This document shows, piece by piece, positions 43,596 to 46,670 of a stretch of 64,000 bases of DNA. The stretch's first letter is position 1, and every line of letters begins with the position of its first letter. Below the pieces are notes generated by a model. The model ran no database searches. It saw only the letters and a list, made by a program, of their open reading frames with translations, and was not told where the DNA came from. A program made the position numbers and the translations under genes. Source of the DNA: Escherichia phage vB_EcoM-UFV09; sequence record MZ291552.2; one strand, 5' to 3'.

Positions 43596-44456
43596 TTATA
43601 CCGCCATCTTTCCTTTAATTGACGGATGAGATACATAGTTATTAAGAACAAAATTATGAGGCTTTGCAAATTGACTCAACCAAAATACCTGCGATTCTGT
43701 GTCCCATTCATCAAATTCATCTGGAAATTTTAATTGTAATTCGCATAAATCCATAGGTTCACGGCGTAAAATTTCTTTACATTGTTCTACGTGATTCATA
43801 TAGATATGAGTATTACCACCAGAAAATATCAAATCTCCAGGAATAAGATTACACATTTTAGCTACAATATGAACTAACGTAGCATATGATGCAATATTAA
43901 ATGGAAGACCGAGGAAAACATCTACCGAACGTTGATACCACTGCAAATCCAAATAGCCATTACGCACATTAAACTGATAGAACATATGACAAGGCGGTAA
44001 TGCCATATATTTAAGTTCAGCTGGATTCCATGCAGAAACAATTTGACGCCTATCATTTGGCAGTTTTTTAATACGATCAATAACTTCTATAATTTGGTCT
44101 ACACCGCCAAAATCACGCCACTGTTTTCCATAAATTGGACCAAGTTCACCACTATGGTATCCTAAATCTTTTGCTTGATTTTCGTAATTTTCATCCCAGA
44201 CTGTTTTGCCTTGAATTAATGAATCATGTTGAATTAATCGTAAATCATTGACATTTGTGCTTCCTGATAAAAACCATATTAGCTCAGCAATGCATGCATT
44301 CCAGGCGAGCTTTTTAGTTGTTACTGCAGGAAAGCCTTTAGTTAAATCCCAACGCAATTTAGTACCGAACAGAGCAATTGTTCCTGTGCCCGTTCGGTCA
44401 TCGGTTTCATAGCCATTTTCAAAAATGTCTTTAATTAAATCTTGGTATTGTTTCAT
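43596..44456 (-). CDS. td: Thymidylate synthase, intron-less
   Basis: 286-aa continuous ORF; N-terminus MKQYQDLIKDIFENGYETDDRTGTGT; active-site region PPCH. Confidence 0.9.
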   Translation of the reverse strand: MKQYQDLIKDIFENGYETDDRTGTGTIALFGTKLRWDLTKGFPAVTTKKLAWNACIAELIWFLSGSTNVNDLRLIQHDSLIQGKTVWDENYENQAKDLGYHSGELGPIYGKQWRDFGGVDQIIEVIDRIKKLPNDRRQIVSAWNPAELKYMALPPCHMFYQFNVRNGYLDLQWYQRSVDVFLGLPFNIASYATLVHIVAKMCNLIPGDLIFSGGNTHIYMNHVEQCKEILRREPMDLCELQLKFPDEFDEWDTESQVFWLSQFAKPHNFVLNNYVSHPSIKGKMAV

Positions 44457-44501
44457 TTAGTACCTTATATAAATTATAATACATTTTATGAAGCTAAATA
44501 A

Positions 44502-44849
44502 TCAATACGGTTTAGCATCAAATTTTCTCTCAATTTCAGGCGTGAAATATAATTCTTTACCGCGTTTGGAAAAGCGACCAATAATATGATAATTATTCTC
44601 ATCAAACGTGATATTACCAATATCCATAGCTTTCAACCAAATATCGATATTTCTATCCAGCTTTATGTCAAAATTCCAATATGGAGAACTATTACCGAAA
44701 ATACTGCAAGCGGATTCAGTGAAACAACTGCTATAAATCTTGTCTTTAGGAACTACTAATTGATAGACACCTTTAATAAACTGAGGACCCTGCCACTTTG
44801 GCTGTTTCTCGTCTTTTTCTAATAGAATAGGGTAATAATTAAAATTCAT
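44502..44849 (-). CDS. Hypothetical protein encoded between frd and td
   Basis: 115-aa ORF filling a roughly 410-bp gap where T4 has frd and td overlapping. Confidence 0.55.
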   Translation of the reverse strand: MNFNYYPILLEKDEKQPKWQGPQFIKGVYQLVVPKDKIYSSCFTESACSIFGNSSPYWNFDIKLDRNIDIWLKAMDIGNITFDENNYHIIGRFSKRGKELYFTPEIERKFDAKPY

Positions 44850-44868
44850 ATTTCCGCCACGCGTTATT

Positions 44869-45694
<826 letters not shown>

Positions 45695-45710
<16 letters not shown>

Positions 45711-46054
45711 TGAAAAGAGTCATGAGCATATCCGCTAGCGTCAATCATTTTAACTAAAGTTACCATTCCTCTGTTAACTGCTTGTGCGATTTCATCAAAA
45801 ACTTCATCACTATCATCGTAAAGATCATTAAAAAGTTCTAACACGTTCTTCTGAACTTTTAATTTACGGCCGACAATTTCCCCTACAGTAAATTCGTTTC
45901 CGCCAAATCCAGCGTAAAATGTAATTACACCCATTAACTGGCTTTCACGGGAATCTATGTCGTGTGATAAATTAATAAAAGCCGTCCCAGGCGCGGTTTT
46001 AAGTTGGCAACGAATTTTTACTTGGGTAATTCCAGTTATATGAATGTTAGACAT
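45695..46054 (-). CDS. Hypothetical protein (frd.2 position)
   Basis: 119-aa ORF. Confidence 0.55.
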
Positions 46055-46367: not shown

Positions 46368-46670
46368 TTATTTTTGAATTTTATCTAGCCACTTACCAAG
46401 CTTAATCATTTCTTTAGTAGCCTTTTCCATACTTCTGAACTTAACCAATAGAGGATAGGTATCGACACTCATAACTAAATTGGTTGCAAGACTGTGTTCA
46501 CCCACAAGCCATAACGAATACGTTTGAATATCGAGTCCGTAATTTCTGTCTTTATGGACCCGTACACCCATCACTTCAAATTTCTCACTAGCTTTTTCTA
46601 CCGCATCCAGGAAATCATCTTTAGTCATATTAGGCCTTAAAAGTTTTTCGCAAAAGTTCAATGATTTCAT
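46368..46670 (-). CDS. Hypothetical protein
   Basis: 100-aa ORF. Confidence 0.5.
   Translation of the reverse strand: MKSLNFCEKLLRPNMTKDDFLDAVEKASEKFEVMGVRVHKDRNYGLDIQTYSLWLVGEHSLATNLVMSVDTYPLLVKFRSMEKATKEMIKLGKWLDKIQK

Follow-up and report, generated by a model that had tools for sequence, protein, structure and literature searches.

Organization of the frd-td region

We analyzed a stretch of 64,000 nucleotides from Escherichia phage vB_EcoM-UFV09 (sequence record MZ291552.2), hereafter the window, and focused on the genes for dihydrofolate reductase (frd) and thymidylate synthase (td). The two genes are separated by a gap of 412 bp (44457-44868), in agreement with the figure of about 410 bp in a first-pass annotation made from the letters of the sequence. 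The 115-aa open reading frame (ORF) that the annotation placed in this gap, without giving its strand, lies at 44502-44849 on the minus strand and is here called gene X; the ORF list puts frd and td on the same strand. The features of the region, from the gene 32 side toward td, are as follows.

46368-46670, minus strand: ORF between frd and gene 32, 100 aa, no Pfam match, no T4 counterpart
45695-46054, minus strand: ORF between frd and gene 32, 119 aa, DUF7247, no T4 counterpart
45453-45710, minus strand: ORF between frd and gene 32, 85 aa, no Pfam match, no T4 counterpart
44869-45453, minus strand: frd, dihydrofolate reductase, 194 aa (ORF list; annotated so in all matching GenBank records)
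44871-44869, minus strand: frd stop codon, TGA
44867-44875, minus strand: upstream copy of the 9-bp direct repeat TAAATGAAA, across the frd stop codon (sequence; T4 comparison)
44850-44868, minus strand: frd-X spacer, 19 nt, with Shine-Dalgarno-like GGCGGA (sequence)
44502-44849, minus strand: gene X, 115 aa, start MNFNYYPILLEKDEKQPKWQGPQFIKGVYQLVVPKDK / MNFNYYPILLEKDEKQPKWQ (ORF list; phrog_1928)
44457-44501, minus strand: X-td spacer, 45 nt (sequence; consensus scan)
44451-44459, minus strand: downstream copy of the 9-bp direct repeat TAAATGAAA, across the td start codon (sequence)
43596-44456, minus strand: td, thymidylate synthase, 286 aa, uninterrupted (ORF list)

The window td has neither a group I intron nor I-TevI, unlike in T4, whose td consists of two joined pieces with I-TevI between them. 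Sequences identical to the window segment (100%) were found in Escherichia phages vB_EcoM-UFV05, -06, -10, and -11 and in vB_EcoM_11B_SA_NWU, and the near-identical relatives of the region are Tequatroviruses. Two observations concern the flanks. The frd-proximal ORFs, including the one for DUF7247, recur 5′ of frd in phage KarlGJung (as 81-aa and 119-aa ORFs) and in the loci L007 and L008, and among close relatives Td is mosaic in its C-terminal third, with 74% identity for residues 184-286 of locus L015 versus 92% for residues 1-183, and a dN of 0.13 relative to teqskov.

Gene X is a genuine coding gene

The product of X matched the phrog_1928 HMM with an E value of 3.1e-36, residues 4-111 aligning with profile positions 2-125 of 126. 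Purifying selection on X is strong: in phage pairs drawn from Tequatrovirus and Mosigvirus, its dN/dS, calculated with our own Nei-Gojobori script, was 0.012-0.058 at dS values of 0.26-0.73, and it is more constrained than frd, for which dN/dS was 0.10-0.24 in the same pairs. Upstream of the gene, the Shine-Dalgarno-like GGCGGA (44858-44853) is followed by 3 nt (AAT) and then by the start codon, and the block TGGCGGAAA(A)TATG is kept in teqskov, F2, and OLB35 despite a synonymous divergence of 0.3-0.7 in X. When 1.84 billion representative proteins were searched exhaustively with HMMER, approximately 21 related clusters emerged, all of stand-alone proteins of 95-119 aa; two long matches in this search (P0021 and P0024) were set aside as repetitive, unrelated sequences.

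Taken together, the phrog_1928 match, the diverged homologs at the same locus described below, the low dN/dS, the confident structural model (mean pLDDT of 90), and the Shine-Dalgarno-like block establish X as a real gene and rule out a chance ORF, and the coding potential and ribosome-binding site on which the first-pass annotation depended are both borne out. Two other readings of the 412 bp were discarded. An RNA element was set aside because an Rfam scan of the region gave a single chance-level match and no RNA family, and because both spacers fold no better than shuffled sequence; a segment of foreign composition was set aside because the GC content of X is similar to that of the adjoining genes.

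X is not new to the databases. Tequatrovirus records in GenBank contain annotated hypothetical genes that are 100% identical to it, and it is the gene entered as "td.1" in the T6 fragment AY262134 and as RB32ORF229c in RB14, a member of phrog_1928. Its status is thus that of an already catalogued, uncharacterized gene, present in hundreds of GenBank records and nearly always labeled "hypothetical protein." Literature searches found no papers on the ORF, and two reviews, on T4-related genomes and on mobile elements, do not mention it.

X is the majority state of the frd-td junction

We surveyed the frd-td junction in approximately 540 T4-type records, with the share of bare junctions estimated from evenly sampled rows, and found three states.

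X junction: approximately 355-358 records, approximately 65%
Y junction, with a different gene of 68 aa: 137 records, approximately 25%
Bare, T4-type junction: approximately 10% of evenly sampled rows (T4 strains, HY03, G28, F1, G2133)

X is therefore the majority state in Tequatrovirus, whose X-carrying members include the window phage, T6, RB3, and RB14, and the bare junction is the rarest. Protein-level matches to X at 90% identity or more came from 362 records, roughly the number of X-type junctions, which indicates that the gene has no other location in phages whose frd-td junction lacks it. X is dispensable, being missing from T4 and about a third of its genus. Linkage of X to the td intron was considered and rejected, as all combinations occur: X without the intron in the window, X with the intron in KarlGJung and L015, and the intron without X in T4.

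The junction comparison across T4-like genomes that had been proposed with the first-pass annotation thus gave a divided answer, in that T4 does lack the ORF, as expected there, but X is common at the same junction elsewhere. The description of X as an insertion proved largely wrong, given that X is the majority Tequatrovirus state and occupies the same slot in at least six genera. Absence from T4 does not imply insertion in its relatives. As a reference, T4 is here a reduced outlier, lacking X, Y, and the three small ORFs listed above on the gene 32 side of frd; it is reduced across the whole of that interval.

X occupies the same slot across deep divergence and has a tandem paralog

A tblastn search recovered X-like proteins of less than 60% identity in 227 further records, mostly from phages of Klebsiella, Salmonella, Citrobacter, Enterobacter, Serratia, and Erwinia. 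We inspected 21 loci, comprising Jiaodavirus PKO111, Gelderlandvirus CGG4-1, Moonvirus Merlin, Kanagawavirus IME523, 2 metagenomic loci, and 15 IMG/VR contigs, and X lay directly between frd and td in every one (21/21 loci, at least six genera). Tequatrovirus, Mosigvirus, Jiaodavirus, Gelderlandvirus, Moonvirus, and Kanagawavirus all have X 3′ of frd, as do unclassified metagenomic T4-like phages; phage F2, Mosigvirus OLB35, and teqskov, looked at apart from the 21 loci, showed the same frd-X-td order. Across genera the X homologs share 26-66% identity, compared with 43-53% for Frd (the range for the window Frd against those of other genera), 69-78% for Td, and approximately 64-80% for NrdA. 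Outside Tequatrovirus, the start of X usually overlaps the frd stop.

The details of this overlap vary. In F2 (L011, 894-1511) and OLB35 (L012, 1650-2267), frd encodes 205 aa and shares 11 nt with X; its frame differs close to the usual stop, so that it continues through the stretch that forms the frd-X spacer of the window. In one IMG/VR contig (L021, 2560-3001), approximately 440 bp lie between frd and X and may hold another small ORF or element.

In 14 loci X is followed by a second member of the family, X′, which matched phrog_1928 with an E value of 7.9e-33. X and X′ have the motifs Q-K-K-W, H-G-(I/F)-Y, and G-R-F-x-K-x-G in common. The X′ copies formed a separate clade in a neighbor-joining tree drawn without bootstrap support, a pattern suggestive of a duplication that would be older than these genera. 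X′ proteins are 113-119 aa long, and their QKKW motif is followed by an insertion of about 20 aa (examples at L004 2809-3156, L005 2787-3134, L006 2817-3176, and L007 4332-4673), and they are better conserved across genera than X (44-49% versus 26-45% identity). No paralog of X was found in the window itself, either by hhalign against its 137 ATG-initiated ORFs of at least 50 aa (best non-self probability, 6%) or by an HMM search of its six-frame translation.

The gene of the Y junctions belongs to phrog_9550 and corresponds to Sf21 gp226, and its start and stop overlap frd and td. Three loci (L007, L018, and L019) have the order frd-X-X′-Y-td. Y is a basic protein of 68-69 aa (L009 600-806, which is Shigella phage Sf21 gp226, and L007 4670-4879); by eye, the Sf21 and L007 copies are about three-quarters identical, far above the conservation of their Frd proteins.

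The T4 junction is probably a deletion derivative

The T4 genome (NC_000866) has the frd end at 145109 and the td start at 145112, the two genes overlapping in ATGA within the junction GTATATAAATGAAACAATACC; unlike in the window, td begins inside the 3′ end of frd. The overlap is as the first-pass annotation described it, and the T4 junction indeed holds no X. The two copies of TAAATGAAA in the window stand 416 bp apart, which is the length that T4 lacks, and the T4 sequence is an exact recombinant between them. Correspondingly, X-type records span 715-718 bp against the 301-bp T4 junction used as the query. The T4 junction thus looks like exactly the outcome to be expected of a deletion between the 9-bp repeats around X. 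An insertion at the same microhomology would yield identical sequences, so the direction of the change rests on phylogenetic distribution, which we read by parsimony. On this basis we consider it very probable that the deletion took place in the T4 lineage and that T4 is the derived form.

In the scheme that we propose, the ancestral arrangement would, with high probability, have been frd-X-X′-Y-td with overlapping stop and start codons. Differential loss would then have left Tequatroviruses with X, with Y, or, in T4, with nothing, the T4 state arising by recombination or slippage between the TAAATGAAA repeats around X.

The converse would be a true insertion in the lineage of Tequatrovirus and Mosigvirus, in which X came from a T4-like phage resembling L007 or L008 and entered an ATGA junction, duplicating TAAATGAAA. 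The X proteins of L007 and L008 are 63-66% identical to that of the window, yet their Frd proteins only 46-49%, and this may leave room for horizontal exchange, although uneven evolutionary rates could produce the same pattern. The end of frd in the window still reads ATGAAA, resembling a td start, and it is only in Tequatrovirus that X is spaced from frd and has its own Shine-Dalgarno sequence, as an insertion might leave it. However, genes of the X family fill the same site in every other genus examined, the site in Tequatrovirus also holds Y from the same larger cassette, the bare junction that would have received X is the rarest state, and the GC content carries no foreign signal. We therefore regard an insertion as quite unlikely. 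X is thus very probably an old member of the nucleotide-precursor module formed by frd and td in Tevenvirinae rather than inserted cargo. The fuller reading, which joins this origin to the binding and accessory role of the protein proposed below, is plausible, if somewhat short of probable.

Predicted fold and conserved residues of X

Sequence searches did not place X in a characterized family. X, X′, and Y had no match in scans of Pfam (E ≤ 1 for X), NCBIfam, and PADLOC, the last of which covers defense genes and is uninformative as to an antidefense role; in the PDB, neither the single protein sequence nor two profiles found more than chance-level matches. Pfam, NCBIfam, and PDB searches thus uphold the earlier statement that X has no recognizable motif, and across Pfam, NCBIfam, PHROGs, PDB, and BFVD we found no characterized relative.

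Structure prediction, one of the checks suggested with the first-pass annotation, gave a confident model. AlphaFold2 with an alignment of 24 sequences reached a mean pLDDT of 90 and a pTM of 0.83, compared with a pLDDT of 61 when only 4 sequences were used. The model has strands at residues 6-12, 27-34, and 62-64, a helix at 68-77, and strands at 80-82, 86-96, and 99-104. X is thereby predicted to be a small beta-barrel with one helix, in the order b1-b2-b3-helix-b4-b5-b6, that is weakly OB-fold-like. Foldseek returned nothing significant for the model against the PDB, and matches in BFVD were limited to uncharacterized proteins, the named ones coming from T4-like phages of Pectobacterium, Serratia, Erwinia, and Aeromonas.

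Seven residues are invariant across X and X′ (Q16, W19, G27, G91, F93, K95, and G97) and three are nearly so (L9, Y29, and R92). The alignment of X and X′ contains no conserved acidic residue or histidine, that is, no invariant D, E, or H. Proteins of the X family are neutral to basic (pI 6.8-9.4), and X itself is approximately 13 kDa. We lean toward the view that X is not an enzyme. It could instead be a noncatalytic binding protein whose OB-like pattern of aromatic and basic residues hints at a nucleic acid or nucleotide ligand, and as such it would bind nucleic acid, a nucleotide, or a partner protein.

These data also bear on the label "putative homing endonuclease," which X carries in the BASEL phages KarlGJung, AdolfPortmann, and AugustSocin. 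A free-standing homing endonuclease gene, or the remnant of one, would account for a small ORF that sits between two conserved genes and is missing in some close relatives, in the manner of the seg and mob genes. Against this, none of the 24 family members matches GIY-YIG, HNH, LAGLIDADG, or any other Pfam nuclease family (E ≤ 1), the homing endonuclease classes considered being these three together with His-Cys box, PD-(D/E)xK, and EDxHD; there is no invariant acidic residue or histidine, and a dN/dS of 0.01-0.06 is unlike that of a decaying selfish gene; moreover, 21 of 21 loci place the gene at one slot while it has diverged to 26% identity, as opposed to the scattered distribution of mobile genes. 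On motifs, invariant residues, synteny, and selection we rejected this identity, to which we assign next to no probability. The searches reported here back none of the functional names given to X and Y in GenBank records. Labels are inconsistent elsewhere as well, X appearing as a putative dihydrofolate reductase or a putative glucose-1-phosphate adenylyltransferase, and Y in PYPS2T as a "flagellar biosynthesis protein."

Spacers and a possible td promoter

The X-td spacer provides the Shine-Dalgarno sequence of td, AAGG at 44466-44463, 6 nt before the ATG. A consensus scan of the spacer region gave a sigma-70-like match consisting of TTGATT (44505-44500), 18 nt, and TATTAT (44481-44476). The spacer also contains TATAAT (44478-44473) and a MotA-box-like TTTAGCTTCA (44498-44489), and 32 nt of it, including TTTAGCTTCA and TATAAT, are absent in F2 and OLB35. 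The element at 44473-44505 could provide td with a middle or early promoter of its own; matches of this promoter-like kind were no more frequent in the AT-rich spacer region than in shuffled sequence.

Possible roles of X

In the window, X is probably cotranscribed with frd and td and would be translated from its own Shine-Dalgarno-like site. Our best guess at its role is that of a dispensable, coexpressed accessory of the Frd/Td machinery for dNTP precursors. The suggestion comes from the fixed slot between the two enzymes, the frequent overlap of the X start with the frd stop, and a constraint stronger than that on frd. Overlapping stop and start codons are, however, common between unrelated neighbors in T4-like genomes, so the coupling of X says little about a shared function. 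No homology ties X to Frd or Td, and what speaks for a physical association with components of the dNTP synthetase, such as Frd, Td, NrdAB, gp42, gp1, or gp32, is synteny together with the shared minus-strand orientation. Growth of T4, of approximately 10% of the genus, and of phages with the Y junction does not depend on X, so the gene is not required for thymidylate synthesis, and the uneven identity of X (26-66%) would also suit a host-interaction gene or horizontal exchange. An accessory role of this kind is our leading proposal, though we rate it at well below even odds.

A more specific version, which we consider improbable, is that X and X′ form a noncatalytic subunit or regulator of the thymidylate cycle or of the dNTP-synthetase complex, or else a new class of inhibitor acting against nucleotide-pool defense. 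As an OB-like adaptor, for example, X might tether Frd and Td to single-stranded DNA, to gp32, or to their own mRNA. If this were true, loss of the gene from laboratory T4 would explain how 60 years of T4 genetics missed it.

Alternatively, X may be an accessory host-interaction or antidefense protein that blocks a host factor, its adjacency to frd and td being historical. Its patchy presence within the genus and the ability of T4 to manage without it would fit such a role, as would the tandem X/X′ paralogy, which represents a gene-family expansion, and the rapid and uneven divergence of X between genera (26-66%) while the neighboring enzymes stay constant. X is also small, has no enzyme-like invariant residues, and belongs to a family confined to phages, with approximately 21 clusters among the 1.84 billion representatives. 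Yet the slot is identical in 21 of 21 loci across deep divergence, whereas counter-defense genes of T-even phages lie more often in variable regions, and the strong purifying selection within Tequatrovirus and Mosigvirus is not arms-race diversification; the literature searches offered nothing on X in this regard. We consider this role, the main rival of the accessory one, about as likely, again at well below even odds. The proposal in the first-pass annotation that the gap holds accessory or antidefense cargo survives in part: X is dispensable, and the antidefense role, though conceivable, is unsupported, with no characterized match in the libraries searched and a mildly basic protein that is not like an acidic mimic.

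Among uncharacterized T-even genes, X is one of the more tightly constrained, and it combines a confident predicted fold with the lack of a characterized relative; we consider it worth modest follow-up.

Comparison with known systems

T6 td.1, RB32ORF229c, and phrog_1928 represent the same gene as X, which hundreds of Tequatrovirus records have at this locus with 97-100% identity, and the phrog_1928 family is one without an assigned function, Pfam entry, NCBIfam model, or solved structure. In size, strand, lack of characterization, and variability among relatives, X resembles the small ORFs of the T4 gene 32-frd-td-nrdA cluster, namely, frd.1 (DUF5417), frd.2, frd.3, nrdA.1 (DUF4326), nrdA.2 (DUF5496), and DUF7247. 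The likeness is one of neighborhood, as hhalign detected no relationship between X and the other ORFs of the window.

The seg and mob genes of T-even phages are similar to X in being small ORFs between conserved genes that some relatives have and others lack. X differs from them in having no nuclease motif and no invariants of a catalytic type, in its fixed deep synteny, and in its strong purifying selection. With respect to OB-fold nucleic acid-binding domains, among them SSB, RPA, S1 domains, and telomere-end binders, the predicted strand order of X is the same with one extra strand, the likeness of the model being weak and Foldseek finding no significant PDB match, and the aromatic and basic residues W19, Y29, F93, R92, and K95 make up a set similar to that of OB-type binding sites.
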